Assembly (NCBI GenBank): GCA_000091165.1
Contig: FP565575.1
Location: 330,001-362,000 of the forward strand
Direction of reading: 5' to 3'
Length of the DNA stretch: 32,000 nt
Origin: Candidatus Methylomirabilis oxygeniifera
Lineage (GTDB): Bacteria > Methylomirabilota > Methylomirabilia > Methylomirabilales > Methylomirabilaceae
This document shows positions 1,100 through 14,241 of this stretch, piece by piece. The notes beneath the pieces are model-generated. The model was not told the DNA's origin. It searched no databases and saw only the letters and a program-made list of their open reading frames with translations. The position numbers and the translations under genes are program-made. Numbering within the stretch: the stretch's first letter is position 1; each line of letters starts with the position of its first letter.

Positions 1100-2083
1100 A
1101 TGCGAAGATTCCTTCGCCTCTCTCTAGTTGCCGCCGCCTTCGCATTAATCTCGCCTGTCGCTACCGCCCAAGAGTACTTCGGGGAGTTCTTGGACAGGCC
1201 AAAAGGCGCTTTCATTGTCGAAGCGCAACCAAGGCCATTGTTTAGGGTCGAAACCGACTTCCGCTTTAAGGACCCAAATGGCCTGCTATGGTCGACGCCT
1301 GCTGGCACTGAGGTTGATGGGGCTTCGATTCCACAGTTGTTTTGGTCAATTATCGGAGGGCCGTTCGAGGGGCCGTATATAAACGCTTCCATCATTCACG
1401 ATTACTACTGTCGCACAATGGAACGCACCGCGCACGATACGCACAGGAACCTCTACTACGGAATGCGCACCTCCCAAGTACCCAAGTGGAAGGCTAAGTT
1501 GATGCATTGGGCCGTATCAGCGTTCGGACCATCATGGAAGCTAGAAAGACGCGTTGTAATGCGGCAGACTTGTGCTAACCCTCCCGATTTACCGGCAACC
1601 TGTTCGTCAGTTCCGACTTCTGAGGTCGTGCCTGTGAAATCTCCACCCATTGACCTCTCCGATCCCGTTGTCTTGGCGGCTGCAATTAGCAAGATGACCG
1701 CAGTCGCTAGAACACTTCTCACCTCAAACGGAGAGGTCCTCGATGTGACGGCTGGAGGACCGGTAAGCGCCACAGTCGAAGGTATTCAAGCGAGTGCAGA
1801 TGCATATCGTCAAGTATTTACAAGCAAGGAGTTCTCAAGCTCCCCCGCAAGGCTCGGCCTTTTATCGCAGGCCACCGGAAGTACTTTGGCAGACGTGCAG
1901 CCCTGGGCGGGTAACCGAATCCCAAGTCTTAAGGAGGCTATCGTACTGACCCCTAAAACCGTATCAAAGGTCGAAGCGAGTGCACCATTTAAGCTCGATC
2001 CACGGAGCAAGGACCTCATTCGCGATCGCGTGGACCTTGAGTTGCTCAAGGCGACAATCCATATACAGGACCGAAGCATGTAG
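1100..2083 (+). CDS. Secreted DUF1353-domain protein with an uncharacterised C-terminal half
   Basis: 327 aa. Signal peptide MRRFLRLSLVAAAFALISPVATAQE. FRFKDPNGLLWSTPAGTEVDGASIPQLFWSIIGGPF...ASIIHDYYC matches the DUF1353 signature (GxxxDGASIP...HD). GGGAGA lies 7 nt upstream of the ATG. Residues about 150-327 are not recognisable. Confidence 0.7.
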   Translation: MRRFLRLSLVAAAFALISPVATAQEYFGEFLDRPKGAFIVEAQPRPLFRVETDFRFKDPNGLLWSTPAGTEVDGASIPQLFWSIIGGPFEGPYINASIIHDYYCRTMERTAHDTHRNLYYGMRTSQVPKWKAKLMHWAVSAFGPSWKLERRVVMRQTCANPPDLPATCSSVPTSEVVPVKSPPIDLSDPVVLAAAISKMTAVARTLLTSNGEVLDVTAGGPVSATVEGIQASADAYRQVFTSKEFSSSPARLGLLSQATGSTLADVQPWAGNRIPSLKEAIVLTPKTVSKVEASAPFKLDPRSKDLIRDRVDLELLKATIHIQDRSM

Positions 2084-2100
2084 ACTTTACGGATGCCTAA

Positions 2101-2130
2101 CCCCTCGTTCTAGGGGACCGCCTACGGCGG
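2101..2130 (+). terminator. Two short tandem hairpins after the DUF1353 gene (weak terminator candidate)
   Basis: CCCCT-cgttct-AGGGG (2101-2116) and CCGCC-tac-GGCGG (2118-2130). There is no U-tract, so this is only a candidate. Confidence 0.2.
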
Positions 2131-2181
2131 CCGCTGAACTCGAAGTCGTTAGGCAGCACAGTTTTCAGAAAGGGTGACGAG

Positions 2182-2763
2182 ATGGGGAAGGTAGGCGAGA
2201 TAGACGCGTTAACAACCATTGACGAAGCACTATCAGCTCTGGAAGACCCCCATGCTCGGAGCCGAGTCTTGTCGTGGGCATTGAACAAATACTCATCAGA
2301 GACGCGGCCACCGGCCGACGATGTCGCTAAGACCAGGATGCCTAGGACAGGCAACAAGAGATCGAAGAAAAAGCCTTCCGACGCAAAAGGCAGGGCCAGA
2401 GGTAAATCCAAAGCATCACTGTCGATGGTGAGAGATTTGAATTTGAAGCCCAAGGGCAAGAAGTCCCTGGATGAATTCGTTGAGGATAAGAAGCCGATTT
2501 CGCATTACGAAAAATCTACCGTCGCCGCCTATTATCTTAGGCATGAGCTGAGTCTTCCGGCTATTTCGGCAAATCACATCTATACGTGCTTCAAACACAT
2601 GAAGTGGCGGATTCCAGCCGATCTTTTTAACACTCTCGCTTACACAGCCAGCCAATACGGATGGCTCGACACGAGCAATCGGGATGACATAAAAGTGACC
2701 ACCATGGGCGAGAACCTAGTGGAGCACGATCTCCCAAAGGGAAAAGGGTCTAAGAAGAAGTGA
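2182..2763 (+). CDS. Hypothetical protein: acidic helical N-terminus, Lys/Arg-rich linker, C-terminal wHTH-like domain
   Basis: 193 aa. The linker is KRSKKKPSDAKGRARGKSKAS...KPKGKK. The C-terminal domain is SLDEFVEDKKPISHYEKSTVAAYYLRHELSLPAISANHIYTCFKHMKWRIPADLFNTLAYTASQYGWLD...VTTMGENLVEH. The stop overlaps the GTG of the next gene (GTGA at 2760-2763). No family was recognised. Confidence 0.6.
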   Translation: MGKVGEIDALTTIDEALSALEDPHARSRVLSWALNKYSSETRPPADDVAKTRMPRTGNKRSKKKPSDAKGRARGKSKASLSMVRDLNLKPKGKKSLDEFVEDKKPISHYEKSTVAAYYLRHELSLPAISANHIYTCFKHMKWRIPADLFNTLAYTASQYGWLDTSNRDDIKVTTMGENLVEHDLPKGKGSKKK

Positions 2764-3029
2764 CCGATTCAAACGAAATTTTGGAAGGGACACTTCTACA
2801 AGCTGTTCCGGAGGGACTTCGTCAGGAACTCCTTTCGGCCTATGGCCGAATTCTCAGAAACTTTAGAGAGAGGCGCTGGGAGCCTGCCGAATTGAACGGG
2901 GGGAAGCTTTGCGAGGTTGTTTATACAATTCTTCGCGGGTACATGGATGGCAAATACCCAAAGAAGTCCTCTAAGCCCAAGAATATGGTAGACGCGTGCT
3001 GCGGCCTTGAACAGGCTCCGGCGACTTCT
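2760..3029 (+). pseudogene. 5' fragment of an Abi_C/HEPN-like gene interrupted by IS3 element 1
   Basis: The frame reads MTDSNEILEG...KLCEVVYTILRGYMDGKYPKKSSKPKNMVDACCGLEQAPATS, then runs into the IS terminal repeat. The continuation is found at 4301-4804. Confidence 0.7.
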
Positions 3030-3097
3030 ATACTGACCCCCTTGAGAAGTAGACAGCGCTTGTGACAAACTGGGGCGACTCAACAAGGAGGTGTCGA

Positions 3098-3418
3098 ATG
3101 GCCGAGTCGACCCTGACACAGAATCGCTGGACGATCACCCGCAAGACGGCTGTGGTGCTGGAACTATTGCGTGGTGGTGAGGCCGCGGAGCTGGCCCGCA
3201 GGTATGGGCTCAGCCAAGCCCAACTGTTTGCCTGGCGGGATCGGTTCCTGGAAGGCGGGCAGGCGGCGCTCAAGACGCGCCGGGGACAGATCGACTCTGA
3301 GCGGGAGCGCCGCGTGCGGGAGCTGGAGCGCAAGGTGGGCCAGCTCACCCTGGAGAAGGAGCTGTTAAAAAAAACCGACGCGCTGATCCGCCAACGTGGG
3401 CGGAGGTCGACCAGTTGA
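3098..3418 (+). CDS. IS3-family transposase OrfA (HTH / leucine zipper)
   Basis: AAGGAGG lies 7 nt upstream of ATG 3098. ITRKTAVVLELLRGGEAAELARRYGLSQAQLFAWRDRFLEGG is the HTH. ERRVRELERKVGQLTLEKELLKK is the coiled coil that ends at the slippery site. Confidence 0.9.
   Translation: MAESTLTQNRWTITRKTAVVLELLRGGEAAELARRYGLSQAQLFAWRDRFLEGGQAALKTRRGQIDSERERRVRELERKVGQLTLEKELLKKTDALIRQRGRRSTS
3367..3374 (+). promoter_or_regulatory. Programmed -1 ribosomal frameshift site (A8 run) of IS element 1
   Basis: TTA AAA AAA ACC in the orfA frame. orfB (3415-4266) lies in the -1 frame relative to orfA, as in IS3-family OrfAB fusions. Confidence 0.75.
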
Positions 3419-4266
3419 GGGCGCAGGGTGCGCCGCTGAGTCTGGCGTGCCGGACACTGGGTGTCTCGCGCGCGGGCTTCTACAAATGGCAGCGCGGCTC
3501 GGCGCCCACTTCCCCGCAGCAGGCGCCGTGTGACGAGCGCCTGGCCCAGCGGATCCGGAACATCCTGGACCGCGAGGAGACCTTCGGCTACCGGCGGGTG
3601 TGGGCCTGGCTGCGGTTCCAGGAGGGCGTCAGGGTGAATCGCAAGACGGTCCATCGGATCATGCAACGGAAAGGGTGGCAATGCCGCGTGTGGCACCGTC
3701 CAGCCCTGCGGCCCACGCCGACGTGGGAGAAGTGTTCGACGGTCCAGCAGCCGGACCGGCTCTGGGCCACCGATGCGACGAAGATCTGGTGTGGTCGGGA
3801 TGGCTGGGCGAGTCTTATCGGCGTCCTCGACGCTGGCAGCCGCGAGTGCGTCGGCGCTCGGTTTGCCCGCCAGGGTCGGGCGATCGAAGCGGTCGATGCC
3901 CTGGAGCAAGGCATTCTCCAGTGCTATGGAAGTTTCGCCCACGTACCCGAGGGCCTGCGGCTTCGGCACGATAACGGTTCCATCTTCCTGGCCCGCCTGT
4001 TCGTTGGGACCACCCAGCAGCTTGCGATTACCCAGGAGTTTATCCCTCGATACTCCCCGGAGTACAACGGGGTCATTGAACGCTTCTTCCGCACCCTGAA
4101 GCAAGAATGTGTCTGGTTGCACCATTTCGAGTCCTTCGCGGAGGCCGAATCCATCATCATGGCCTGGATCGACCGCTACAACAGCGAGCGACAGCATTCG
4201 GCCCTGGGGTATCTCACCCCTCGGGTCTGGCGTGAACAGTTCTATCAACTCCCCCAGGCGGCATAA
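3415..4266 (+). CDS. IS3-family transposase OrfB (DDE/rve integrase core)
   Basis: 283 aa. DDE candidates are LWATDATKI, LRLRHDNGS and YSPEYNGVIERFFRTLKQE. The tail is the typical YNSERQHSALGYLTP. Confidence 0.9.
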   Translation: MRAQGAPLSLACRTLGVSRAGFYKWQRGSAPTSPQQAPCDERLAQRIRNILDREETFGYRRVWAWLRFQEGVRVNRKTVHRIMQRKGWQCRVWHRPALRPTPTWEKCSTVQQPDRLWATDATKIWCGRDGWASLIGVLDAGSRECVGARFARQGRAIEAVDALEQGILQCYGSFAHVPEGLRLRHDNGSIFLARLFVGTTQQLAITQEFIPRYSPEYNGVIERFFRTLKQECVWLHHFESFAEAESIIMAWIDRYNSERQHSALGYLTPRVWREQFYQLPQAA

Positions 4267-4300
4267 GCCCTGTTGACTTTCAGGGGGGCACTACACTTCT

Positions 4301-4804
4301 TCCTCACGTTCCGTGCGAATTCAGATACCGCGCATGCTCGTTGCTTTGTATGAAATCCGTAACAACAGGGGCGTTGGTCATGTTGGTGGGGACGTTGATC
4401 CGAATCATATGGATGCCGTATGCGTCCTAGAAATGTCCAAGTGGATTCTTGGTGAACTGATTCGAATCTTTCACGACGTGTCGACCGAAAAAGCGACCGC
4501 CGCAGTTGATGCAATAGTAGAACGAACGCTTCCTATTGTATGGGAGGTTGGCGGGAAGTTCCGGGTCCTTGAACCTCAAATGAGCATGAAAGATAAGGCT
4601 TTGGTGCTGCTTTATCACTGTACAGCCCCTGTAGCGGAGGCAAATCTCATTGATTGGGTAGAGCACTCAAATGCCTCCGTTTTTCGCCGGGATGTGCTTC
4701 GTCTGGCCCATAGACAAAGACTGCTCGAGTACGATGCCGATGCATGTACTGTTCAGATTTCGCCTCGTGGTATCGAACACGTCGAGACATCGATCTTGCA
4801 GTAG
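4301..4804 (+). pseudogene. 3' fragment of the Abi_C/HEPN-like gene interrupted by IS3 element 1
   Basis: The frame reads SSRSVRIQIPRMLVALYEIRNNRGVGHVGGDVDPNHMDAVCVLEMSKWILGELIRIF... to TAG at 4802-4804. LYEIRNNRGVGH fits an R-x(4-6)-H HEPN-type motif and resembles the RN..g.aHG core of Abi_C. Joining 3029 to 4301 is in frame. Confidence 0.65.
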
Positions 4805-4952
4805 TGCAGTGACCCGTCGGAGAGATAGGTAACAAAAAAGTCCTGGGACATGGGTTACACCTTGTGGCATTTTAATCTACCATATCCATCCTCGATGCGC
4901 ATATGCCGTTCATGGAGCCGGCCGAGTGTGAGTGGGCCGAAGTAAACGTTCC

Positions 4953-5522
4953 ATGGACAAAAGTATTGTAGCTCTGCTCGGCGTTGTGCTGGGATTCTTA
5001 CTGCAAGCGGTGGCTTCCCTCGTGCGATCCTATACAACCGGACGCCGCTTTGAGAATGCGGTCCGGGCAGAGCTGGCAGAGGCAAAAGAACTAATTGACC
5101 GCAAGATGCGTTGGATACTCAGAGATGAGACGGGAGTCACGCCCGAGTCGAGGAATCCTAGCCATGTTGTCGCCTGCTACGGGAGGCTGCTCTATCTTGG
5201 AGAACCAGAGGACTTTTCCGTGCATTTGCCATTTTGGGAGCAGAACATTCGAGCGATTGTCGAGGTTACACCTGCCAAGCCTTTCGCGGCGCTGTTCCAG
5301 GAAATCGTTCTCGTCAACAAATTTCTTTCCAAGTTTCGCGACATGAAGTTGGCGTTTACTTCTGGTCTTGGAGATCCCAAAGGGATGGCCGTTGCTTGCC
5401 TGGAAGACTTGATCAGCATACACGACCAGCTTATTCCGGGCCAAGCACTCGCACGAACTCTGTCGGTCCCGCTGGTTCTGCTAGGCTCCTCGGCAGCCGC
5501 GAAACAGGCCCCGAATGCATAA
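4953..5522 (+). CDS. Hypothetical N-terminally membrane-anchored protein
   Basis: From ATG 4953: MDKSIVALLGVVLGFLLQAVASLV (one TM helix), followed by about 165 soluble residues with no recognisable family. The ORF is open from GTG 4932. The ribosome-binding site is weak. GC is low, like the rest of the island. Confidence 0.5.
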   Translation: MDKSIVALLGVVLGFLLQAVASLVRSYTTGRRFENAVRAELAEAKELIDRKMRWILRDETGVTPESRNPSHVVACYGRLLYLGEPEDFSVHLPFWEQNIRAIVEVTPAKPFAALFQEIVLVNKFLSKFRDMKLAFTSGLGDPKGMAVACLEDLISIHDQLIPGQALARTLSVPLVLLGSSAAAKQAPNA

Positions 5523-5810
5523 CGAGGCGTTGGGTGGCCGCCGTGCTCGCGTTTTATTCTGCGAGGGTCCGTGTTGCTCCGTGTGCGATTTGTGGTTGTT
5601 CGGCGGGTCCTGCGGGTCGGACCGGCGTAACTTCTTGATGTGACAATATGAGTTCGCAAAATCGCCGTAGTCCATACGCGTAGCGGTATCGTTGTGACCA
5701 GGAAACGCACGCCCTGAGACAGACGCGATGCCCCGTACCGGCAACACGGCGACTCAACGCCAAGGCGTAAGCCGTCATCGCATGGCGTGCTTTCCGGACA
5801 CCTTGATTCC

Positions 5811-5819
5811 TGGTATGAT
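5811..5819 (+). promoter_or_regulatory. Possible extended -10 promoter (TGgTATGAT) for the DUF2442/DUF4160 pair
   Basis: TGGTATGAT lies about 23 nt upstream of ATG 5842, with GGAGG at 5828-5832. The -35 region is poor. Pattern match only. Confidence 0.3.
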
Positions 5820-5841
5820 CGACGTGTGGAGGAATCGAGCA

Positions 5842-6126
5842 ATGAGAAGGATTGTCACGGTCAAGGTATTGCCAGGATATCGCCTGGAGTTGGAATTTGA
5901 CGACGGAGTATCCGGGACCGTTGACCTCTCCGAAGCTGTCGGCAAAGGTGTATTCGCCCTGTGGTGCGACCCGCTCGCCTTCGATCGGGTTCGGATCGGG
6001 TCATCCGGCGAACTGGTCTGGGACGACCGGATTGATCTGTGCCCGGATGCGCTCTACCTCAAGGTGACAGGTAAGACACCGGAAGACATGTTTCCTGCGC
6101 TACGCGACCAGCCGACCCATGCCTGA
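5842..6126 (+). CDS. DUF2442 family protein
   Basis: 94 aa from ATG 5842 with a GGAGG RBS. VKVLPGYRLELEFDDGVSGTVDLSE...LCPDALY is typical of DUF2442. Its end overlaps the next gene by 8 nt. Confidence 0.75.
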   Translation: MRRIVTVKVLPGYRLELEFDDGVSGTVDLSEAVGKGVFALWCDPLAFDRVRIGSSGELVWDDRIDLCPDALYLKVTGKTPEDMFPALRDQPTHA

Positions 6127-6379
6127 GATCAGCCGATTCTTCGGCATCGTCATCAAGATGTTCTTCGACGATCACAATCCCCCACACTTTCATGCGGAAT
6201 ACGGCGGTGACCTTGCACTGATCGATATCCGCAGCTTGGCCGTGTTTTCAGGGCGGTTGCCGCCTCGCGTCACAGGTCTTGTGATCGAGTGGGCAACGCT
6301 TCATCAGCGGGAGCTTCTCGCCGATTGGGATCGGGCACAGGTGCGAGAGGAGCTCCAGAAGATTGCCCCCTTGGAATGA
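6119..6379 (+). CDS. DUF4160 family protein
   Basis: 86 aa. MPEISRFFGIVIKMFFDDHNPPHFHAEYGG is the hallmark DUF4160 N-terminus. Confidence 0.85.
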   Translation: MPEISRFFGIVIKMFFDDHNPPHFHAEYGGDLALIDIRSLAVFSGRLPPRVTGLVIEWATLHQRELLADWDRAQVREELQKIAPLE

Positions 6380-6443
6380 GAACGGCTAACCATTGGGTTG
6401 AGACCGACAGAGCGGCTCACCGCAAACGTCAGCCGGACAGAGG

Positions 6444-6731
6444 TCAAGCGGCCGCGAGCTTCTTGACGCGAAGCGACCGGCGCTTGGTCTCTGCCTTTGC
6501 CAGATCGAACTGGAGCTGCTGGCTGAGCCAGCTCTCCGCAGTGGTGCCGAAGGCGATCGACAGACGGACCGCCATCTCCGGGCTAATGCCGGCGCGGCAG
6601 TTCAGGATACTCGAGAGCGTCTTGCGACTGACCCCGAGCGCGTTGGCCGCTTCGGTCACGGTCAAACCGAGTGGCTGAAAGCAGAACTCGCGGAGCACCT
6701 CACCTGGATGAGGCGGATTGTGCATCTTCAT
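6444..6731 (-). CDS. higA: HigA-type antitoxin (XRE-family HTH)
   Basis: 95 aa. [15 protein letters not shown]...[56 protein letters not shown] is the HigA (antidote) signature. It lies 9 nt downstream of higB. Confidence 0.9.
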
Positions 6732-6740
6732 AGAGACACC

Positions 6741-7028
6741 TCAGTGGTAATCCTCATAATCGACATTGACGACATCAGGGCCTGAGAACGCGAACGTGAT
6801 ACGCCAGTTCCCACTCACGCTCACAGCCCATGTTCCTTCTCGCTCGCCTTTCAGCAGGTGGAGATCCAGTCCCGGCAGGCCCATGTCGCGGGGCTCTCTC
6901 GCGACGTTCAACCGACCGAGGATCAGGCGTAGTCTTCGGGCATGCTTGGCTTGGATGCCAGCGGTCGTTCCACGGAGGAAGAAACGCTCCAAGCCCTTAT
7001 GCCTGAACTTCAGGATCGCCACGGACAA
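6741..7028 (-). CDS. higB: HigB-type toxin (plasmid maintenance system killer, RelE superfamily)
   Basis: 95 aa. FRHKGLERFF...AKHARRLRLILGRLN...LDLHLLKGEREGTWAVSVSGNWRITFAF...VDYEDYH matches the HigB family. Confidence 0.9.
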   Translation of the reverse strand: MSVAILKFRHKGLERFFLRGTTAGIQAKHARRLRLILGRLNVAREPRDMGLPGLDLHLLKGEREGTWAVSVSGNWRITFAFSGPDVVNVDYEDYH

Positions 7029-7125
7029 ATTGTAACACGTAACGTCTCAGGTTGCAACTGGCTACCAATGGGCTCTAATGGATCGGACTCGCTGTTGTGG
7101 CCGGCCCACAACCATGGCTCAGATA

Positions 7126-7165
7126 CTGTGAGATTGCTCCAGTCGCTCTGCTCCTTCGCAATGAC
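7126..7165. repeat. Half copy of the GTCATTGCGAG-type REP/MITE-like repeat
   Basis: CTGTGAGATTGCTCCAGTCGCTCTGCTCCTTCGCAATGAC parallels the right arm of the 16744-16833 copy (CTGTGAGATTGCTTCGGTTTCGCCTCGCAATGAC). Confidence 0.6.
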
Positions 7166-7216
7166 CCGCAGGGGACTTAATGACCACAGAGGATTGTGTG
7201 ACGGTGGATAAGAGTA

Positions 7217-8206
7217 ATGAACGAGGCTCTTGAAAAGTGCGTTCGGATCGGCACATCGGGCTGGTCGTATCCAAAGGGGGAGGGGCGCTGGAACGGGATC
7301 TTCTATCCCCCGAAGCCCAAGAACGAGTTGGAGCTATACAGCCAGGTCTTCAACACCGTGGAGGTCAACGCTACCTTTTATCGGCTAATCGATCCGCAGA
7401 CGGCGCGGGTGTGGGTCGCGAATACGCCCAAGAATTTTGAATTCGCGATCAAGATCTGGCAGAAGTTTACGCATCCGGGGATGTTTCAGAAGGCGACGGG
7501 CGCCGAGCCTGAGATTACGCAGCAGGATTACGACGATTTCAAGCGAGGCATCCACCCGATTGCCGAGGAGTGCAAACTCGCCTGCCTGCTGATCCAGTTC
7601 TCCGAGTGGTTTGCGAGCACGCCTCAGCACCAAGCTACCCTCTCGACGATCCTGCAGCAGTTCAAGGACTACCCCGTGGCGGTCGAGCTGCGCCATGCCT
7701 CCTGGGGTGATCGCGCAAGGGACACCAAGGCGCTGCTGGTCGCCTCTGGCGCAGGCTGGGCCTACATCGACATGCCGCAGTTGAAGGGCACGATCAAGCA
7801 GGAATTGGAGCCGCAACGGCTGCTGTACCTGCGCTTCCACGGCAGGAACCGCGAGAAGTGGAGGCAGCATGAGACGGCAGAGGAGCGGTACGATTACCTC
7901 TACTCAGAAGAGGAACTAAAGCCGTTCGCTGAAAAGGTCCGAGAGATCGTTGCGGCAGGAGAGAGCAAGGTGCTGATCTTCTTCAACAATCACGTACGCG
8001 GCCAAGCCCCGGCGAACGCCTTGATGTTGGCGCATCAGATCGGACTGCCATCCACCGCGACCGTGCGCGCGGAGTTCACCAAGGCGTTTCCCGCGATCAA
8101 CGATGCCGTTAAGGAGATCCAGACTCCAGAGGCGAAGAGGCCAAACCAAGAGGTGCTGTTTTCTGCCTGGACGCCTACCGAGGCAGATTCGGAATCTTGT
8201 GGATAG
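7217..8206 (+). CDS. DUF72 (YecE-like) family protein
   Basis: 329 aa. IGTSGWSYPKGEGRWNGIFYP...ELELYSQVFNTVEVNATFYRL is the DUF72 signature. Confidence 0.85.
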   Translation: MNEALEKCVRIGTSGWSYPKGEGRWNGIFYPPKPKNELELYSQVFNTVEVNATFYRLIDPQTARVWVANTPKNFEFAIKIWQKFTHPGMFQKATGAEPEITQQDYDDFKRGIHPIAEECKLACLLIQFSEWFASTPQHQATLSTILQQFKDYPVAVELRHASWGDRARDTKALLVASGAGWAYIDMPQLKGTIKQELEPQRLLYLRFHGRNREKWRQHETAEERYDYLYSEEELKPFAEKVREIVAAGESKVLIFFNNHVRGQAPANALMLAHQIGLPSTATVRAEFTKAFPAINDAVKEIQTPEAKRPNQEVLFSAWTPTEADSESCG

Positions 8207-8492
8207 TCGAGTTGGAGACCGCAAAGGCATGCACCTGCGGCTCACCGTCGATCACTCCTTCAAGCGCTTGCAGCACCTGGGGGTACGTTTCGCGATGATA
8301 CACATCCGCACTGTCGGCCCTGTCCCACAGGCTGATGGCAATCGCCTCATTACGCTCGCCGGACACGAAGGAGATTTCATCGCAAAACCCGTCCTGCGAC
8401 CTGAGGATCGGGATGATCGTACTCTGTAGCGTTCGAGAAAATGCTACAGCGCTACCCGGACGAAGCTTTACGCAGATCTTTCTTGCAAACAT
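8175..8492 (-). CDS. ABM/Dabb-fold (antibiotic biosynthesis monooxygenase-like) small protein
   Basis: 105 aa from ATG 8492, preceded by AGGAGG. MFARKICVKLRPGS...EISFVSGERNEAIAISLWDRADSADVYHRETYPQVLQAL fits the ferredoxin-like ABM pattern. The longer ORF to 8588 has no RBS. Confidence 0.6.
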   Translation of the reverse strand: MFARKICVKLRPGSAVAFSRTLQSTIIPILRSQDGFCDEISFVSGERNEAIAISLWDRADSADVYHRETYPQVLQALEGVIDGEPQVHAFAVSNSTIHKIPNLPR

Positions 8493-8680
8493 GCGTTCCT
8501 CCTGAATACAGACGATTAATGGGATTCCAGGTGACTCGATCTGTGAGGACGACCGCGGAACTCCCGGTGGCAGGACCTTAGGCAACAAATTCTATTCAAG
8601 GCATTAGCGTGTGTCAATAACAATCCTCCGACCTTGCGTAGGTCAGAGGATGCGACGACGGGATTGCGGATGAGATCTGA

Positions 8681-8697
8681 GACCCGCGCCGCGGGTC
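8681..8697 (-). terminator. Perfect GC hairpin downstream of the aconitase/small-ORF unit
   Basis: GACCCGCG-c-CGCGGGTC: 8-bp stem, 1-nt apex. It lies 12 nt past the small ORF stop. There is no U-tract. Confidence 0.25.
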
Positions 8698-8708
8698 GTC
8701 TAGTGCTT

Positions 8709-8798
8709 TCAGCCTGACCCTCGCTTGCGGAAGACGATCAGGTACGTGAGAACTCCAACGAGTACGAGTCCTCCGAGCTGCCACAGCAGACTTTCCAT
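8709..8798 (-). CDS. Candidate 29-aa hydrophobic peptide immediately downstream of aconitase
   Basis: It is below the ORF-track length cutoff. AGGAGG lies 5 nt upstream of ATG 8798 and overlaps the aconitase stop codon. The peptide is MESLLWQLGGLVLVGVLTYLIVFRKRGSG: one TM helix plus a basic tail. Confidence 0.35.
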   Translation of the reverse strand: MESLLWQLGGLVLVGVLTYLIVFRKRGSG

Positions 8799-8807
8799 GC
8801 TTACCTC

Positions 8808-10736
8808 CTAGGCCGTAGCCTTGATGGTATAGTTCAGCATCCCACCGGCCAGGACGATATCCACCTCACGAGCGGTCAGATCATGCCTGGCCACGAACTC
8901 TGTTCCTTTACTGACATTGCTGACGACAACCTGCTGTCCCCCTCGGATCTGCTCAGCCACTCGCTCGATCCGCAGGTGATCTCCCTGACCAATGCTATCA
9001 TAATCCCGCCCATCCGCAAAGATCAGCGGCAGGATCCCGAAGTTGATCAGGTTGGCGCGGTGGATACGGGCGAACGACGCGACGATGGCTCCCTTGAGAC
9101 CCAAGTACATCGGTGCGAGCGCCGCATGCTCTCTGCTCGAACCCTGGCCATAGTTGCTACCCCCGATCACGAAGCCGCCGCTCTTCTCCTTTGCACGCCT
9201 GGCGAACTCCGGATCGACCCGGCTGAAGGCGTACTCCGAGATAGCCGGGATATTGCTGCGGAGCGGCAGGATCTTGGAGCCTGCCGGGAGGATATGGTCG
9301 GTGGTGATGTTGTCACCCATCTTCAGGAGGACCTCACCCTCGATGGTTGAGGGGAGTTCACCCCGAATCGGGACAGGCTTGATGTTGGGGCCACGCATCA
9401 CCTCGATCTGTTCCGGATGTGGCGATGGCGGGACGATCAGGTTATCGTCGAGGACGAACTGCTCCGGCGGGAGCACTGATACCGGTTGGCTGACGCGCCT
9501 CGGATGGACGATTTCACCGGCCAGAGCGGAGGCCGCGCAGACCTCCGGGCTCGACAGATAGACCTTGTCGTTGGGCGCGCCGCTCCTACCCTCGAAGTTG
9601 CGATTGAAGCTTCTGAGTGACGCCGTCCCGCTGGCAGGAGCCTGACCCATGCCGATGCACGGGCCGCAGGCCGATTCCAGGATCCTTCCGCCCGCTGCAA
9701 TCAGATCGGCCAGTGCGCCATTGGCGGCGATCATGGTATAGACCTGCTTGGAGCCCGGCGTAACCGTGAAGCTGATGTCCGGGTGGACGGTCTTTCCCTT
9801 CAACATCGTCGCGACCGTCATCAGGTCCCGGAACGAGGAGTTGGTACAGCTTCCGACGCAGACCTGAGAGATCTTGGTTCCCTCGACCTCGGAGACCGGA
9901 CAGACATTGTCCGGGCTCGAAGGCCGGGCCACCATCGGTTCGAGTCGGTCCAGGTCGATCTCCAGCAGTTCGTCGTAGGTGGCATCGGGATCGGGCGCCA
10001 GCGCAACCCAACTGCCTTCACGTCCCTGCGCCGCGAGATAGCGGCGGGTCTGCTCGTCGCTGGGGAAGATGGAAGTTGTCGCGCCAAGCTCAGCCCCCAT
10101 GTTGGTGATTGTGGCCCGCTCCGGCACGGTGAGGCACGTCACCCCGTCGCCCCCATATTCCAGGATCTTCCCCACGCCGCCCTTCACGGTAAGTCGCCGT
10201 AAGACCTCCAGGATGATGTCCTTGGCCGCCCCCCATGGGCCTAGCCGTCCGTTCAGTCGGACCAGCAGGACCTTTGGCATTGGGAGGTAGAACGGCCCTC
10301 CCCCCATGGCGACAGCGACATCCAGGCCACCCGCCCCGATGGCGATCATCCCGACGCCGCCGCAGGTCGGGGTGTGGCTGTCGGAGCCGAGCAACGTTTG
10401 TCCCGGCGCGCTGAACCGTTCCAGGTGGACCTGGTGACAAATCCCATTCCCGGGACGCGAGAAGTAGATGCCGTACTTGGCCGCGATGCTCTGCAGGAAC
10501 CGATGGTCATCGGCGTTCTCGAAACCGGTCTGCAGCATGTTGTGATCCACATAGCTGACCGATAGCTTCGTCCTGACACGCGGGATACCCATCGCCTCGA
10601 ACTGCAAATAGGCCATCGTCCCGGTCGCATCCTGGGTCAGCGTCTGGTCAATCCGGATCGCGACCTCTTTGCCCGGAGTGAGCTCTCCGGCCACCCGGTG
10701 AGCCTCAAAAATCTTCTGCACCAGATTCATGCCCAT
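8808..10736 (-). CDS. Aconitate hydratase, short (~640 aa) aconitase-family form
   Basis: 642 aa. Fe-S and substrate motifs: IDQTLTQDATG, GSDSHTPTCGG, VGSCTNSS, ESACGPCIGMGQ, and the swivel domain GGSNYGQGSSREHAA. Confidence 0.9.
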   Translation of the reverse strand: MGMNLVQKIFEAHRVAGELTPGKEVAIRIDQTLTQDATGTMAYLQFEAMGIPRVRTKLSVSYVDHNMLQTGFENADDHRFLQSIAAKYGIYFSRPGNGICHQVHLERFSAPGQTLLGSDSHTPTCGGVGMIAIGAGGLDVAVAMGGGPFYLPMPKVLLVRLNGRLGPWGAAKDIILEVLRRLTVKGGVGKILEYGGDGVTCLTVPERATITNMGAELGATTSIFPSDEQTRRYLAAQGREGSWVALAPDPDATYDELLEIDLDRLEPMVARPSSPDNVCPVSEVEGTKISQVCVGSCTNSSFRDLMTVATMLKGKTVHPDISFTVTPGSKQVYTMIAANGALADLIAAGGRILESACGPCIGMGQAPASGTASLRSFNRNFEGRSGAPNDKVYLSSPEVCAASALAGEIVHPRRVSQPVSVLPPEQFVLDDNLIVPPSPHPEQIEVMRGPNIKPVPIRGELPSTIEGEVLLKMGDNITTDHILPAGSKILPLRSNIPAISEYAFSRVDPEFARRAKEKSGGFVIGGSNYGQGSSREHAALAPMYLGLKGAIVASFARIHRANLINFGILPLIFADGRDYDSIGQGDHLRIERVAEQIRGGQQVVVSNVSKGTEFVARHDLTAREVDIVLAGGMLNYTIKATA

Positions 10737-11228
10737 CGCTTCACCCTATCGGTCAGTGGCATAGTCATGTTCAAGACATATGATCTTGTAGCAGCCGGTA
10801 CAACCAATCGCATGCACATTTCGTATTTATCGTAATTGCAACCGCCCACAGCGTCAACGAAAAAGGGGTGGCATCTTATGCGATGGGTTATTTCAGACGT
10901 AGCGCGCGGTGTCCCGTCCCTTCATGAATAGCTCCGGTGCAAGCAGGTTCTTGAGGTAGTGCACCAGTTGCGCTTTCGTTTAACGCAAACCGTGTAGCGC
11001 AAGAAGAAATGTCGGTGCACTCATTGCCCACACGTCTCCCTCGACGGCCCGAACAAGTCTCGGGAAATCAATGAGTTGCCGCTTGAACCGTGAAACCTCT
11101 GGAAGCTGGCATGGCGATTGCTTTTTCCTCAGGCAGACGTATCTTGCTCAAACGATCGAGACCAGATGGCCGCGAACCATTATGGTATCGCGCGATCTGC
11201 AATCTATCACTCAAAGGAGGCGGGTCAG

Positions 11229-11573
11229 ATGAAGAGATTCACGAAGCGGTTCGTTCCTGGACTGATCGCCGTCTTGCTCTTGAGCAGCCTACTCCTCGTT
11301 CAAGCCGAGCCCGTGCTGGCGAAGACAAAGTTCTTCTTCGGGCTGAACATCGGGGTTCCGCTGGCGCCGCACGCAGTGTATCCCTATCCGGCCCCGGCGC
11401 GGGTTTACTACCCACCGGTCTATCCACATCCCGCTCCGGTGCGCGTCCATCACCGGCCGGTCTACCAGGCCTACCCGCCATGCGCTCAAGTCTGGATCCC
11501 TGGGTACTATGATCCCTATGGGAACTGGGTCTTCGGCTACTACCAATCTGTCTGTCCCCCTTACGGCTACTGA
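11229..11573 (+). CDS. Small secreted Pro/Tyr-rich protein
   Basis: 114 aa from ATG 11229, with AAAGGAGG upstream. Signal peptide MKRFTKRFVPGLIAVLLLSSLLLVQAEPVLA. This is followed by YPYPAPARVYYPPVYPHPAPVRVHHRPVY repeats and WIPGYYDPYGNWVFGYY. Confidence 0.6.
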   Translation: MKRFTKRFVPGLIAVLLLSSLLLVQAEPVLAKTKFFFGLNIGVPLAPHAVYPYPAPARVYYPPVYPHPAPVRVHHRPVYQAYPPCAQVWIPGYYDPYGNWVFGYYQSVCPPYGY

Positions 11574-11667
11574 CCACGCGGTTTAGACGTGACGGCTACA
11601 CGTTGGCATGGCGCTCATCGACTTCAAGGAGGTCACATCGATTAGTATGGAAAAAGGGGAATACGGC

Positions 11668-11970
11668 ATGCGCATGAAGAATCCCCCCCATCCCGGAAGG
11701 ATTGTCCGCCAGGAGTGTATCGAGTCGCTCGGAGTGACTGTTACAGACGCAGCGGAACGCCTCGGTGTGACGCGGCAGACCCTTAACAACCTGGTAAACG
11801 AGAAGGCCGGGATCTCTCCAGAGATGGCGATCCGACTTTCTAAGGCCTTCGGCAGCGGCCCAGAGGTGTGGCTTGGTCTACAGGTGGAGTATGACCTTGC
11901 TCAGGCAGAACGATACGCTGCGAAGATCAAGGTGAACCGAATCACTGCCACGCCTTCTGCCCTGCGCTAG
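11668..11970 (+). CDS. higA: HigA-like XRE-family antitoxin with no adjacent toxin gene
   Basis: MRMKNPPHPGRIVRQE...[56 protein letters not shown] is a paralogue of the 6444-6731 protein. The ORF is open from 11608. Only 94 nt separate it from the preceding gene. Confidence 0.8.
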   Translation: MRMKNPPHPGRIVRQECIESLGVTVTDAAERLGVTRQTLNNLVNEKAGISPEMAIRLSKAFGSGPEVWLGLQVEYDLAQAERYAAKIKVNRITATPSALR

Positions 11971-12131
11971 GGGACGTAGGTTTCTGTCTTCGGCAGGGCT
12001 GGGTCTCAGCAGCGCAAGTAGCTTAGTGGGGTGCGGTATGGTTTGATGTAGTGCAGGGTCCGGGCTCTGGACCGTGATGGGGATGGGATGCTGCGCGAAG
12101 GGCTCTGCCATCGGGGAGAGCAGTGAGGTCT

Positions 12132-13343
12132 ATGCAAACGGGTAGCGATCGATCAGGGGAGCAGGCCCGGTGGATCATCCATGTCGACATGGACGCCTTC
12201 TATGCTTCTGTGGAGCAGCACGATCACCCGGCTTATCGCGGACGCCCCGTCATCGTAGGGGCCGATCCCCAAGGCGGCAGGGGCCGCGGGGTGGTGTCCG
12301 CCGCCTCGTATGAAGCCCGCGCATTCGGCGTCCACTCGGCCATGCCGATCAGCCAAGCCTACCGGCGGTGTCCGGAGGGGGTGTTCCTCCCCGTCCGGAT
12401 GTCGCACTATCAGGCGATTTCAACTCAGATCTTCCAGATCTTTTCCCGATACACCGACCTCGTGGAGCCGCTCAGTCTGGATGAGGCCTTCCTGGACGTG
12501 ACCGGGAGTCTTCGGCTCTTCGGTTCTGCAGAGATTATCGGACGGCGGATCCAGGCGGAGATTAGGGCTGAGACGGGGCTAGGGGCCTCTGTCGGCATCG
12601 CCGCCAACAAGTTCGTCGCCAAGGTCGCCTCCGACCTGCGAAAACCGAACGGCTTCGTGGTCGTCCCGCCAGGGCAGGAGGCCGACTTCCTCCAGCCCCT
12701 CCCGATCGAACGGCTCTGGGGCGTCGGGCCGAAGACCGCAGGACGACTGCGCCGGATTGGGCTTACGACTATCGGCGAAGTGGCGGCTCGCCCGCAGATG
12801 GAGCTGACGACCGACTTCGGACAGTTAGGCGCGCATCTGTGGGAGTTGGCCCAGGGGATCGATACCCGAGAGGTGATCCCGGACGAGCCTGCCCAATCGG
12901 TGGGAGCGGAGACCACATTTGCAGAGGATACGGCCGATCCCGCCCGAATCCGTCAGACGCTGTTGGCCTTGTCGGAGCGGGTGGCTCGGCGCCTGCGGGT
13001 GGATGCTCTGCAGGCCGGTGCCCTCACCCTGAAACTGCGGGATGAGACCTTCCGGACCCAGACCAGGTCGGTCTCGCTCTCAGAGCCCACCGATCAATCT
13101 CAGGACCTCTACCGGACGGCGCTGATGCTGCTGGAGCGGCTCCCCTCCTCGGGCCGCAAGGTGCGTCTCCTGGGGGTGGCAGCCTCGAGGCTGTCCGATC
13201 TCAAGGGATCGGGACGGCAACTCTCATTGGAGCTGGATCCTGCCGGCGCCAAGCAGCGCCGGTTGACGGAGGCCGTGGATCGTATCCAGGCGCGGTTCGG
13301 GAAGAAGGCGATCCGTCCGGCCAGTCTACTTTCCTCTTCGTGA
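12132..13343 (+). CDS. dinB: DNA polymerase IV (Y-family translesion polymerase)
   Basis: IIHVDMDAFYASVEQ, SYEARAFGVHSAMP, SLDEAFLDVTGS, IAANKFVAKVASD and LWGVGPKT are present. GTG 12123 is an alternative start. Confidence 0.9.
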   Translation: MQTGSDRSGEQARWIIHVDMDAFYASVEQHDHPAYRGRPVIVGADPQGGRGRGVVSAASYEARAFGVHSAMPISQAYRRCPEGVFLPVRMSHYQAISTQIFQIFSRYTDLVEPLSLDEAFLDVTGSLRLFGSAEIIGRRIQAEIRAETGLGASVGIAANKFVAKVASDLRKPNGFVVVPPGQEADFLQPLPIERLWGVGPKTAGRLRRIGLTTIGEVAARPQMELTTDFGQLGAHLWELAQGIDTREVIPDEPAQSVGAETTFAEDTADPARIRQTLLALSERVARRLRVDALQAGALTLKLRDETFRTQTRSVSLSEPTDQSQDLYRTALMLLERLPSSGRKVRLLGVAASRLSDLKGSGRQLSLELDPAGAKQRRLTEAVDRIQARFGKKAIRPASLLSSS

Positions 13344-13364
13344 CCGTAGGTTCCTGTATAGACT

Positions 13365-13832
13365 TTAGTCATGGCTCTTGTCGTCCGTTCTCAGGGAGCC
13401 CTGGATCGAGTCGTCAGATTCGCCATCCCCGAAGGCTTCCTTGGTGGTGTGGCGACGCGGGGAGATGTTGTGTAAATAGCGCCCCATGGTGTCCTCCATG
13501 ATACCGGTACGGAGGTTGTCGTCGCGACTGAACAGACACTCACCACGTAAGACGTAGAGGCGGAAGGAAATCGGCGCCGTATTGAGGGTGCGGACATTGA
13601 CTGGAAGTGTGACCTTGGTGCTCAGATGGGCCGACAGATTCGCAGTCATGGCATTGTTGAAGTGGCTGGTAGACAGGTAGACGCCGATATCAACGTTGTG
13701 AAATGCTTCAGATTTGAGAAACGAGCCGTAAACGTAGGCGAAAAGTACGTCGGTGTAATGTAGTAACTCGGCGGCAATCTGATCCCGAATAGCACTGCGT
13801 TCAGCAGGGCTCAGTCGGTAGAGCCGTCTCAT
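13365..13832 (-). CDS. Pol-beta-fold nucleotidyltransferase (MNT-like), solitary, with an atypical active-site motif
   Basis: 155 aa from ATG 13832. FAYVYGSFLKSEAFHNVDIGVYL carries the GS...hDh core, but only one of the two usual acidic residues. A 60-nt sample gives about 47% GC, lower than its neighbours. The 262-aa track ORF (to 14153) is a read-through over the zinc-finger gene. Confidence 0.6.
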   Translation of the reverse strand: MRRLYRLSPAERSAIRDQIAAELLHYTDVLFAYVYGSFLKSEAFHNVDIGVYLSTSHFNNAMTANLSAHLSTKVTLPVNVRTLNTAPISFRLYVLRGECLFSRDDNLRTGIMEDTMGRYLHNISPRRHTTKEAFGDGESDDSIQGSLRTDDKSHD

Positions 13833-13848
13833 CGGACTCGTCCCCGCA

Positions 13849-14241
13849 TTATCGTTTTTCCGCTTCCCACTCCTCTTGGCAGGTCGCACACCGCTGGGCG
13901 AAGGGTAGGGCCTGCAGGCGGGGTAACGGGATCTCGTCGCCGCATCCGGCACAGCGGCCGTACGTCCCGGCCTTGTGGCGCTGGATGGCCACCTCGATCG
14001 CCTGAAGCTGTTGTTGCTGCTGCGCCACCATGGCCAGGCTGATGTTGCCCTCCGGCGCCGCGCCCCAGCCGTGAGAGCCCGGCGCATCCCGCATCTGAGA
14101 CTCCTCACGCCGCTCGTGAAGCGCCTGACGGATCCGCGCGGCCAGTCGCTCACGCCGTTCGGTCAGCAACCCCAGGAGCTGCGAACTTCTATCCTCTGAG
14201 TCGGTCTCTGTCTGATTACGCTGGTCCACCGACGACCTCAT
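13849..14241 (-). CDS. TraR/DksA-family C4 zinc-finger protein
   Basis: 130 aa from ATG 14241. There is a coiled-coil region, then GRCAGCGDEIPLPRLQALPFAQRCATCQ (CxxC-x17-CxxC). Its ATG overlaps the recD2 stop codon (ATGA). Confidence 0.75.
   Translation of the reverse strand: MRSSVDQRNQTETDSEDRSSQLLGLLTERRERLAARIRQALHERREESQMRDAPGSHGWGAAPEGNISLAMVAQQQQQLQAIEVAIQRHKAGTYGRCAGCGDEIPLPRLQALPFAQRCATCQEEWEAEKR

Follow-up and report, generated by a model that had tools for sequence, protein, structure and literature searches.

The 32,000-nucleotide stretch of DNA analysed here (hereafter, the window), which corresponds to positions 330,001-362,000 of the forward strand of contig FP565575.1 (assembly GCA_000091165.1) of Candidatus Methylomirabilis oxygeniifera, harbours two adjacent, co-oriented genes which, as judged from sequence comparisons, form a real two-gene module. 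Gene 1 codes for a protein ending in a predicted winged helix, and gene 2, which is interrupted by an insertion sequence (IS), for a putative HEPN-type ribonuclease (RNase). Both genes, along with a downstream gene 3, had been singled out in an earlier reading of the window made from the sequence alone (the sequence-only reading), and all three open reading frames (ORFs) were found in the ORF list exactly where that reading had placed them. The locus comprises the following features:

2182..2763, plus strand: gene 1, intact, 193 amino acids, coding for the partner protein (ORF, homologues, alignment and AlphaFold2 (AF2) model)
2760..3029, plus strand: 5' part of gene 2, codons 1-90 with a GTG start, aligning to residues 1-90 of intact homologues
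3024..3029, no strand: left copy of the 6-bp target-site duplication ACTTCT (direct repeat)
3030..4294, plus strand: IS3-family element, 1,265 bp, guanine-cytosine (GC) content 64% (Pfam matches; boundaries from the flanking repeats and the empty site)
4295..4300, no strand: right copy of the 6-bp target-site duplication ACTTCT (direct repeat)
4301..4804, plus strand: 3' part of gene 2, codons 91-257 and the stop, coding for the second half of the HEPN-like helical domain with its putative catalytic loop, and for the winged helix at the C-terminus
4358..4381, plus strand: RNNRGVGH, residues 110-117 of gene 2, putative R-polar-X5-H HEPN/Abi_C catalytic motif (conservation)
4953..5522, plus strand: gene 3, 189 amino acids with one N-terminal transmembrane helix, an unrelated neighbour excluded from the module

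The overlap by which the sequence-only reading had linked genes 1 and 2 measures four nucleotides (2760-2763, AAGAAGTGACC, GTGA): gene 1 closes with the codons AAG AAG TGA, and the GTG start of gene 2 lies within that stop. The same reading took gene 2 to have been knocked out by an IS, and the gene is indeed broken by an IS3-family element of 1,265 bp (3030-4294). Its orfA (3062-3418) matches the Pfam families HTH_28/HTH_Tnp_1 and its orfB (3415-4266) matches rve, rve_3 and HTH_21; orfB lies in the -1 frame relative to orfA, a slippery A8 run is present at 3367-3374, and the ends form imperfect terminal inverted repeats (ATACTGACCCCCTTGAGAAGT / GTAGTGCCCCCCTGAAAGT). The combination of an orfA with a helix-turn-helix (HTH) and an orfB with a DDE rve domain in the 0 and -1 frames, a slippery site, inverted repeats and a target duplication is that of the IS3 family. 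The target duplications of this family are usually 3-5 bp long, and the 6 bp found here are longer. The termini of the element read ATACTG...CACTAC, not plain TG...CA.

The repair put forward in the sequence-only reading, joining 2760-3029 to 4301-4804, proved exactly right. The gene rebuilt in silico encodes 257 amino acids (about 258 had been estimated), which is also the length of its intact homologues (identity up to 90%), and its product aligns with them from the first to the last residue at 63-90% identity, with no indel at the join. The intact gene 2 orthologue (86% identity) of a Nitrospiraceae metagenome-assembled genome (MAG; locus L002) preserves the empty site, GCG-ACTGTT-TGC, with a single copy of ACTGTT where the window has the duplicated ACTTCT. 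Hence, the boundaries of the IS and the 6-bp duplication are confirmed. An alternative delimitation by TG...CA (3034-4290) with a 3-bp duplication would disrupt the reading frame of gene 2 and make the gene exceed its homologues in length, and the 6-bp model was preferred because it is the one that fits the empty site.

Contig WBTX01000026.1, from a MAG of Candidatus Methylomirabilis oxygeniifera (GCA_009026205.1; locus L082), matches positions 4171-12000 of the window at 100% identity and begins inside the IS. The disruption is therefore real in that population and not a local error. In addition, these data suggest that the IS is multi-copy in the MAG genome and has broken the assembly there. 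The element lies between codons 90 and 91, upstream of the putative catalytic loop, and splits off the first three helices; the coding capacity left to gene 2 amounts to a fusion stub of 101 amino acids and a possible fragment of 156-163 amino acids. Since the first three helices are separated from the catalytic loop and nothing but the stub and the possible fragment can be made, the copy of the module in this genome is inactive, and gene 2 is a pseudogene. Here, the module does no more than mark a low-GC island that is decaying and holds many toxin-antitoxin (TA) genes.

The pairing of genes 1 and 2 was surveyed in 81 loci, namely 80 from the genome scan described below and locus L001. By tblastn, a relative of gene 1 was detected directly upstream of gene 2 in 50 of the 81 loci; when an iterated hidden Markov model was applied to the upstream ORFs, the figure rose to 67 of 78, so that the co-conservation which the sequence-only reading had proposed to test holds for genes 1 and 2 in other genomes. 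The gap between the two genes ranges from -20 to +13 nt in 58 of 64 junctions, and a 4-nt ATGA/GTGA overlap, as in the window, is found in 25 of the 64. Clustering of the ORFs over the loci revealed that the gene 1 and gene 2 families are the only ones conserved within 6 kb on either side. Compared over the same 57 loci, gene 1 has a mean pairwise identity of 26% versus 55% for gene 2. The distance matrices of the two genes are correlated (Mantel r 0.55, a value reached in 0 of 2000 permutations), and it follows that the genes travel together. In being adjacent, co-oriented, tightly spaced or overlapping and co-inherited, genes 1 and 2 are arranged like a type II TA operon.

The repaired gene 2 belongs to a large family that reaches across at least 10 phyla; its homologues form 4,445 clusters when grouped at 90% identity and 1,225 when grouped at 50% identity, none of which carries a Pfam domain and all of which are named "hypothetical protein". 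Among 185,579 species-representative genomes, one per species, 281 stretches encoding a gene 2 relative were found, i.e. a prevalence of about 0.15% of species. The best 80 of these 281 stretches, from which the taxonomy and identity range were taken, encode proteins 52-86% identical to the query and come from Nitrospirota, Actinomycetota, Chloroflexota, Pseudomonadota, Planctomycetota, Patescibacteria, Bacteroidota, Cyanobacteria, Gemmatimonadota and others. The actinomycete carriers include cultured Streptomyces and Solirubrobacter, and relatives also occur in Alpha-, Beta-, Gamma- and Deltaproteobacteria (Bradyrhizobium, Mesorhizobium, Sphingopyxis, Xylophilus). Such high identity across phyla, combined with so low a prevalence among species, indicates that the gene 1-gene 2 pair has probably been spread horizontally.

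An AF2 model of the gene 2 protein, built from a 15-sequence alignment (mean predicted local distance difference test (pLDDT) score 81.6), places six helices between residues 18 and 166, followed by a beta-beta-H-H-H-beta-beta-H arrangement at residues 170-255, which is a winged-helix pattern. Matches to this C-terminal part are weak but consistent: Foldseek returned MarR, HxlR and Zur, profile searches Z-alpha/ZBP1, Csa3 and the Fic C-terminus, and Pfam HVO_A0261_N, HTH_45, TFIIE_alpha and Rrf2. The motif to which the sequence-only reading had drawn attention, LYEIRNNRGVGHVGGDVDPNHMDA, is present in the helical part (RNNRGVGH, 4358-4381). In a divergent set of 79 family members, 31-53% identical to the closest homologue, its residues are conserved at 99% (R110), 94% (N111), 100% (R113) and 99% (H117). 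The fixed residues of this set are E52, R110, N111, R113, H117, N125, D128, W138, E142 and R145, and conservation is centred on the loop RNNRGVGH-VGGDVDPN-HMD. R110-x6-H117, near-invariant throughout the family, agrees with the Rx4-6H motif of HEPN domains, and RNNRGVGH with the R-polar-X(3-5)-H motif of Abi_C.

The latter motif has been described as R-polar-X-H, with X=5 the most frequent spacing, in the 2026 paper on SadR, an Abi_C RNase of Staphylococcus aureus in which the substitutions R225A, N226A and H232A within RNEYGDAH abolish both RNA degradation and defence (PMC13590631). RNNRGVGH shares with RNEYGDAH the R-N-x5-H spacing and the central glycine (PMC13590631). Abi_C (PF14355) is also the most frequent Pfam family among the 79 divergent members, matching 10 of them (best E 0.02; other families match no more than 3), and residues 100-135 of the gene 2 consensus match positions 40-77 of the 83-position Abi_C profile, over the motif. 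Meanwhile, the PDB structures listed by Foldseek for gene 2 include HEPN proteins, namely TT1696 (1ufb), sacsin (3o10), AF_0298 (2hsb) and SO_3166 (5yep_B), with target-normalised TM (template modelling) scores of 0.45-0.57, and Csm6 (5yjc), with a score of 0.28.

The Abi_C/HEPN assignment of the sequence-only reading therefore stands in part. It is favoured by the spacing of the motif, by Abi_C being the top Pfam family in divergent members and by HEPN structures being among the best Foldseek matches to the repaired protein, but these matches are weak, and profile and fold matches alike stay below threshold. That gene 2 carries an Abi_C-like HEPN domain is most likely, being the best-supported rather than a demonstrated reading. 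That genes 1 and 2 belong to no named family is supported, as neither is covered by any Pfam, NCBIfam, PADLOC or PHROG model, and direct scans of genes 1, 2 and 3 against these four libraries gave nothing significant. A match of gene 2 alignment A1 to 6-phosphogluconolactonase in the PDB profile search was dismissed as due to chance; alignment A3 gave two weak matches to NTF2-related export proteins.

The layout proposed for the gene 1 protein, an acidic head, a basic linker and a C-terminal winged-helix-like domain, was recovered in full. Its two-helix head comprises about residues 6-37, the disordered Lys/Arg linker about 42-76 (18 K/R per 46 residues) and the winged helix about 96-183. None of the 259 homologues has a Pfam domain. 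Conserved in their alignment (A2) are an N-terminal head of 40 residues (E6, D14, L17, D22, R28, W32, K36) and the C-terminal 100 residues; the Lys/Arg-rich linker between them is variable. The AF2 model (pLDDT 73) consists of two helices, a disordered stretch at 42-76 (linker pLDDT below 50) and a winged helix. By Foldseek, the winged helix resembles those of DtxR, MarR/RovA, Rio2 and linker histone (histone H5), with probabilities up to 0.94 and E about 0.3. PADLOC gave solely PDC-M16B, a match that covers 60 residues within the winged helix at E 0.006, and no nucleotidyltransferase (NTase) or Polbeta match was found for gene 1 in Pfam, NCBIfam or PADLOC. The only PDB profile match of alignment A2, the 30 kDa subunit of a viral RNA polymerase, was dismissed as chance, and a 20-residue hhalign match between the gene 1 and gene 2 families (E 0.06) was rejected as evidence for homology of their winged helices.

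Where the gene upstream of gene 2 is not a gene 1 relative, it often codes for a different small protein of like layout, in which a basic linker connects a small N-terminal domain to a winged-helix-like C-terminal part. Such a protein replaces gene 1 in loci L047, L056, L034, L062 and L074, and in L053 the gene for a partner of the same layout lies downstream of gene 2 (6757-7272). Some loci have one or two extra winged-helix paralogues upstream, and in some, two or three genes of this layout stand in tandem before gene 2. Taken together, this suggests that gene 1 partners are swapped and duplicated across loci. Unrelated small proteins replacing or accompanying gene 1 were noted in L047, L056, L053, L034, L062, L055, L078, L038, L060 and L067.

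On balance, our judgement leans slightly towards the pair being a TA-like or abortive-infection (Abi) module, with gene 2 encoding a HEPN-type RNase and gene 1 its partner. Gene structure, the IS with its target duplication, family size and distribution, the pairing and the conservation of the motif are established by the data, whereas HEPN homology, RNase activity, toxicity or defence and the roles of gene 1 are inferred. The loop containing R110, N111 and H117 would be the putative active site of the RNase. HEPN RNases are normally dimers with a composite Rx4-6H site, and the gene 2 protein is presumably dimeric as well, by analogy with the superfamily; its winged helix may tether the RNase to nucleic acid or to the partner. 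Translational coupling would allow gene 1 to be made at a fixed ratio to gene 2 from the same mRNA. The conserved head of the gene 1 protein could then bind and restrain or regulate the RNase, and its winged helix and basic linker may bind nucleic acid, either for autoregulation of the operon or for sensing of an invader. Fast evolution and interchangeability of the partner, next to a conserved effector, are what one would expect of the half of a conflict system that senses or neutralises. The further-reaching proposal that the pair represents a new, widespread two-component HEPN family, in which a conserved Abi_C-like RNase-winged helix protein is combined with a diversifying, interchangeable partner acting as sensor or antitoxin, is put forward tentatively, since we rate it somewhat below an even chance.

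Several results weigh against a HEPN-type toxin or defence module. The gene 2 consensus scores 12.2 bits (E 0.21) with Abi_C, short of the gathering cut-off of 24 bits, and the gene 2 protein of the window has no Abi_C match at E<=1. All Foldseek matches in the PDB have E above 0.1, generic four-helix bundles (e.g. the GIT1 PBD) score like the HEPN structures, and the motif loop itself is modelled at a pLDDT below 50. HEPN proteins were not found in PDB sequence-profile searches with gene 2 alignments A1 and A3, and no PADLOC, NCBIfam or PHROGs model matches gene 2. The high conservation of gene 2 is unusual for a protein engaged in an arms race, and most of 150 immediate neighbours of the pair elsewhere are ordinary metabolic genes. 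Finally, the family was found in 0 of 50,697 phage genomes, as one weak match among 72,556 plasmids and as one fragment among 2.9 million viral contigs; being nearly absent from all three, it is to be regarded as cargo of chromosomal islands and not as a phage or plasmid gene.

The sole plasmid match is a hypothetical protein of Natronomonas pharaonis plasmid PL131 (NC_007427.1, 2195-2584), 33% identical over residues 19-147 of gene 2. It is possibly an archaeal relative of the HEPN-like domain.

A different explanation is that gene 2 is a self-contained Abi RNase, such as AbiJ or SadR, gene 1 being a repressor or sensor and not a neutralising antitoxin. The characterised Abi_C systems are single proteins, and divergent gene 2 relatives (31-35% identity) can stand alone, without an adjacent partner, as in L089 and L090/L091. 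Also in its favour are the unrelated same-layout families that replace gene 1, the downstream position of the partner in L053, and locus L002, where gene 1 has been destroyed by an IS and gene 2 is intact; the lone relatives and L002 also argue against gene 1 as an obligatory antitoxin. In L002, a different IS3-family element (JBDIVW010000029.1, 1039-2276) has left residues 131-193 of gene 1 alone; it is an IS strike on the module independent of the one in the window. However, the IS of L002 would also sever gene 2 from its promoter, so the intact gene 2 there carries little weight, and gene 2 of the core family almost never lacks a translationally coupled partner, an arrangement typical of stoichiometric complexes. 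The self-contained RNase is rated unlikely.

The solitary relatives in L089 and L090/L091 are about 32% identical to gene 2. In locus L016, no gene 1 relative was detected, and an IS21-type element (3585-5899), composed of a transposase-like ORF of 519 amino acids and IstB, lies directly upstream of gene 2.

The pair might also be a non-toxic regulator composed of two winged-helix proteins, in which the helical domain of gene 2 serves as a sensor or dimeriser and the RN..H loop binds a ligand. Both proteins end in a winged helix, the similarity to HEPN/Abi_C is sub-threshold, non-catalytic HEPN-like domains do exist (sacsin 3o10 is itself among the Foldseek matches), and strong conservation and a chromosomal location would suit a regulator. 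Against a regulator speak the invariance of R, N and H at catalytic spacing, the patchy distribution across phyla at 52-86% identity, the repeated IS hits on the module and its TA-rich, low-GC setting; moreover, conserved target genes are absent from the vicinity, the neighbours varying in every locus. We regard it as improbable.

By far the least probable explanation is the cassette envisaged in the sequence-only reading, in which a DNA-binding protein, a HEPN effector and a membrane-anchored protein act together: the three genes are adjacent and co-oriented in the window and the GC content of gene 3 is also lowered (54%), but relatives of gene 3 occur in 0 of the 81 gene 2 loci, a gap of 148 nt separates it from gene 2, and its own homologues are solitary. 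The gene 3 family (21 clusters) is found in unrelated contexts, adjoining peptidase M1/Band_7, glyoxalase or amidohydrolase genes. As gene 3 is absent from the loci and solitary elsewhere, the module consists of two genes and not three. The single N-terminal hydrophobic helix ascribed to gene 3 was recovered by hydropathy (about residues 5-24), and its ATG start at 4953 is backed by the lengths of the homologues. The DUF1353 gene upstream of gene 1 was rejected as a module member for the same reason, having no relative in any of the 81 loci.

Of the known systems, the Abi_C proteins (PF14355; AbiJ of Lactococcus, SadR of Staphylococcus aureus) share with gene 2 the R-polar-X5-H motif and its central glycine; both are patchily distributed through horizontal spread, and for both a part in abortive infection or defence is expected. 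Gene 2 differs in domain order, gene number and profile score. The Abi_C domain is C-terminal, behind AbiJ-NTD domains or with no N-terminal domain, whereas the HEPN-like domain of gene 2 is N-terminal (about residues 18-166) and the winged helix comes last; AbiJ and SadR act alone, whereas gene 2 has a conserved, translationally coupled partner gene; and no member of the gene 2 family reaches the Abi_C gathering score. HEPN-MNT modules (HepT/MntA, type II/VII TA) resemble the pair in that two small genes are co-transcribed, the toxin is presumably an RNase with the HEPN motif Rx4-6H, and both kinds of module reside in TA-rich islands. The HEPN toxin SO_3166 (5yep_B) figures in the Foldseek list of gene 2. 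However, the partner in HEPN-MNT is a nucleotidyltransferase, whereas gene 1 has a head-linker-winged-helix layout and no Polbeta/NTase match, and here the partner gene precedes the effector.

Classical type II TA systems (HigBA, BrnTA) resemble the pair in that a DNA-binding protein is encoded upstream of the effector, the two genes overlap by 4 nt, the partner evolves fast while the effector is conserved, and the module is mobile and decays by IS. They differ in that the proteins of genes 1 and 2 are much larger (193 and 257 amino acids), the effector itself has a winged helix and some gene 2 relatives lack a partner; neutralisation by gene 1 is putative. The CARF-HTH-HEPN RNases of the Csx1/Csm6 type also combine HEPN and an HTH or winged helix in one polypeptide, and Csm6 (5yjc) and the Csa3 winged helix are among the weak matches of gene 2, but the gene 2 family has neither a CARF domain nor a CRISPR association, its domain order is different and there is no significant similarity.

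That HEPN RNases operate in TA and Abi modules is already known, and the Abi_C subclass is experimentally supported. What is new is an architecture in which the HEPN-like domain precedes a winged helix, a winged-helix partner that is dedicated to the effector and diversifying, and a family of thousands of members that is in no profile library. If the proposed function is correct, a sizeable RNase-based toxin or defence family has been missed by current annotation and defence-finding pipelines, the validated Abi_C/SadR RNase class would extend to a new architecture with a dedicated partner, and the gating of a HEPN nuclease by its winged-helix partner could be studied in a clean system. Members of the family concentrate in environmental and uncultured lineages (NC10, Nitrospirota, Actinomycetota, Chloroflexota and the candidate phyla radiation, CPR), about whose defence repertoires little is known.

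The 60-nt GC spot counts on which the sequence-only reading had based a compositional island were reproduced exactly. Genes 1 and 2 together have a GC content of 50.3%; windows of the same size taken from the rest of the window average 61.3% (SD 2.9, minimum 55.8). A scan of 1900-5700 for promoters and terminators gave no excess of sites over shuffled sequence, and no tRNA gene is present in the window to mark an integration site. In agreement with the sequence-only reading, the locus is flanked by TA genes (BrnT, DUF2442/DUF4160, HigB/HigA), and the lower-GC stretch that holds the pair also contains these genes, the probable BrnA and a DUF1353 protein, probably secreted. The neighbouring features are as follows:

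310-594: BrnT toxin gene (Pfam E 2e-27)
575-820: ORF of 81 amino acids overlapping the BrnT gene, downstream of it, with no Pfam match; probably the BrnA antitoxin
1100-2083: DUF1353 protein of 327 amino acids (E 9e-21) with an N-terminal signal-like sequence, GC content 54%, directly upstream of gene 1
5728-6126: DUF2442, overlapping the next gene
6119-6379: DUF4160
6444-6731, minus strand: HTH_3 antitoxin (HigA)
6741-7028, minus strand: HigB-like toxin

Among the 150 immediate neighbours of the pair elsewhere, phage integrase and Fic recur three times each and type I N6 methyltransferase and AbiEi twice each, as assigned by Pfam; DarT, IstB, a DDE transposase and a phage capsid protein are among those found once. 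Of the divergent gene 2 relatives, that of L090 adjoins a MazE-PIN pair and that of L092 an EcoRV endonuclease and D12 methyltransferase pair (restriction-modification). The context, with its low GC content, TA neighbours, integrases and Abi genes, fits a conflict module.

In L092, the gene 2 relative is overlapped at its start by a truncated ORF lying at the end of the contig. As in the window, DUF4160/DUF2442 genes are located just downstream in L002. Further along the window, the gene calls of L082 (offset +4170) show that aconitase is followed, at about 11230-15520, by an HTH_3/YdaS-like gene, a DinB-type polymerase (IMS), a Polbeta-type minimal nucleotidyltransferase, a DksA/TraR zinc-finger protein and a RecD2-like helicase; of these, the MNT-like gene might form half of another HEPN-MNT-type pair.

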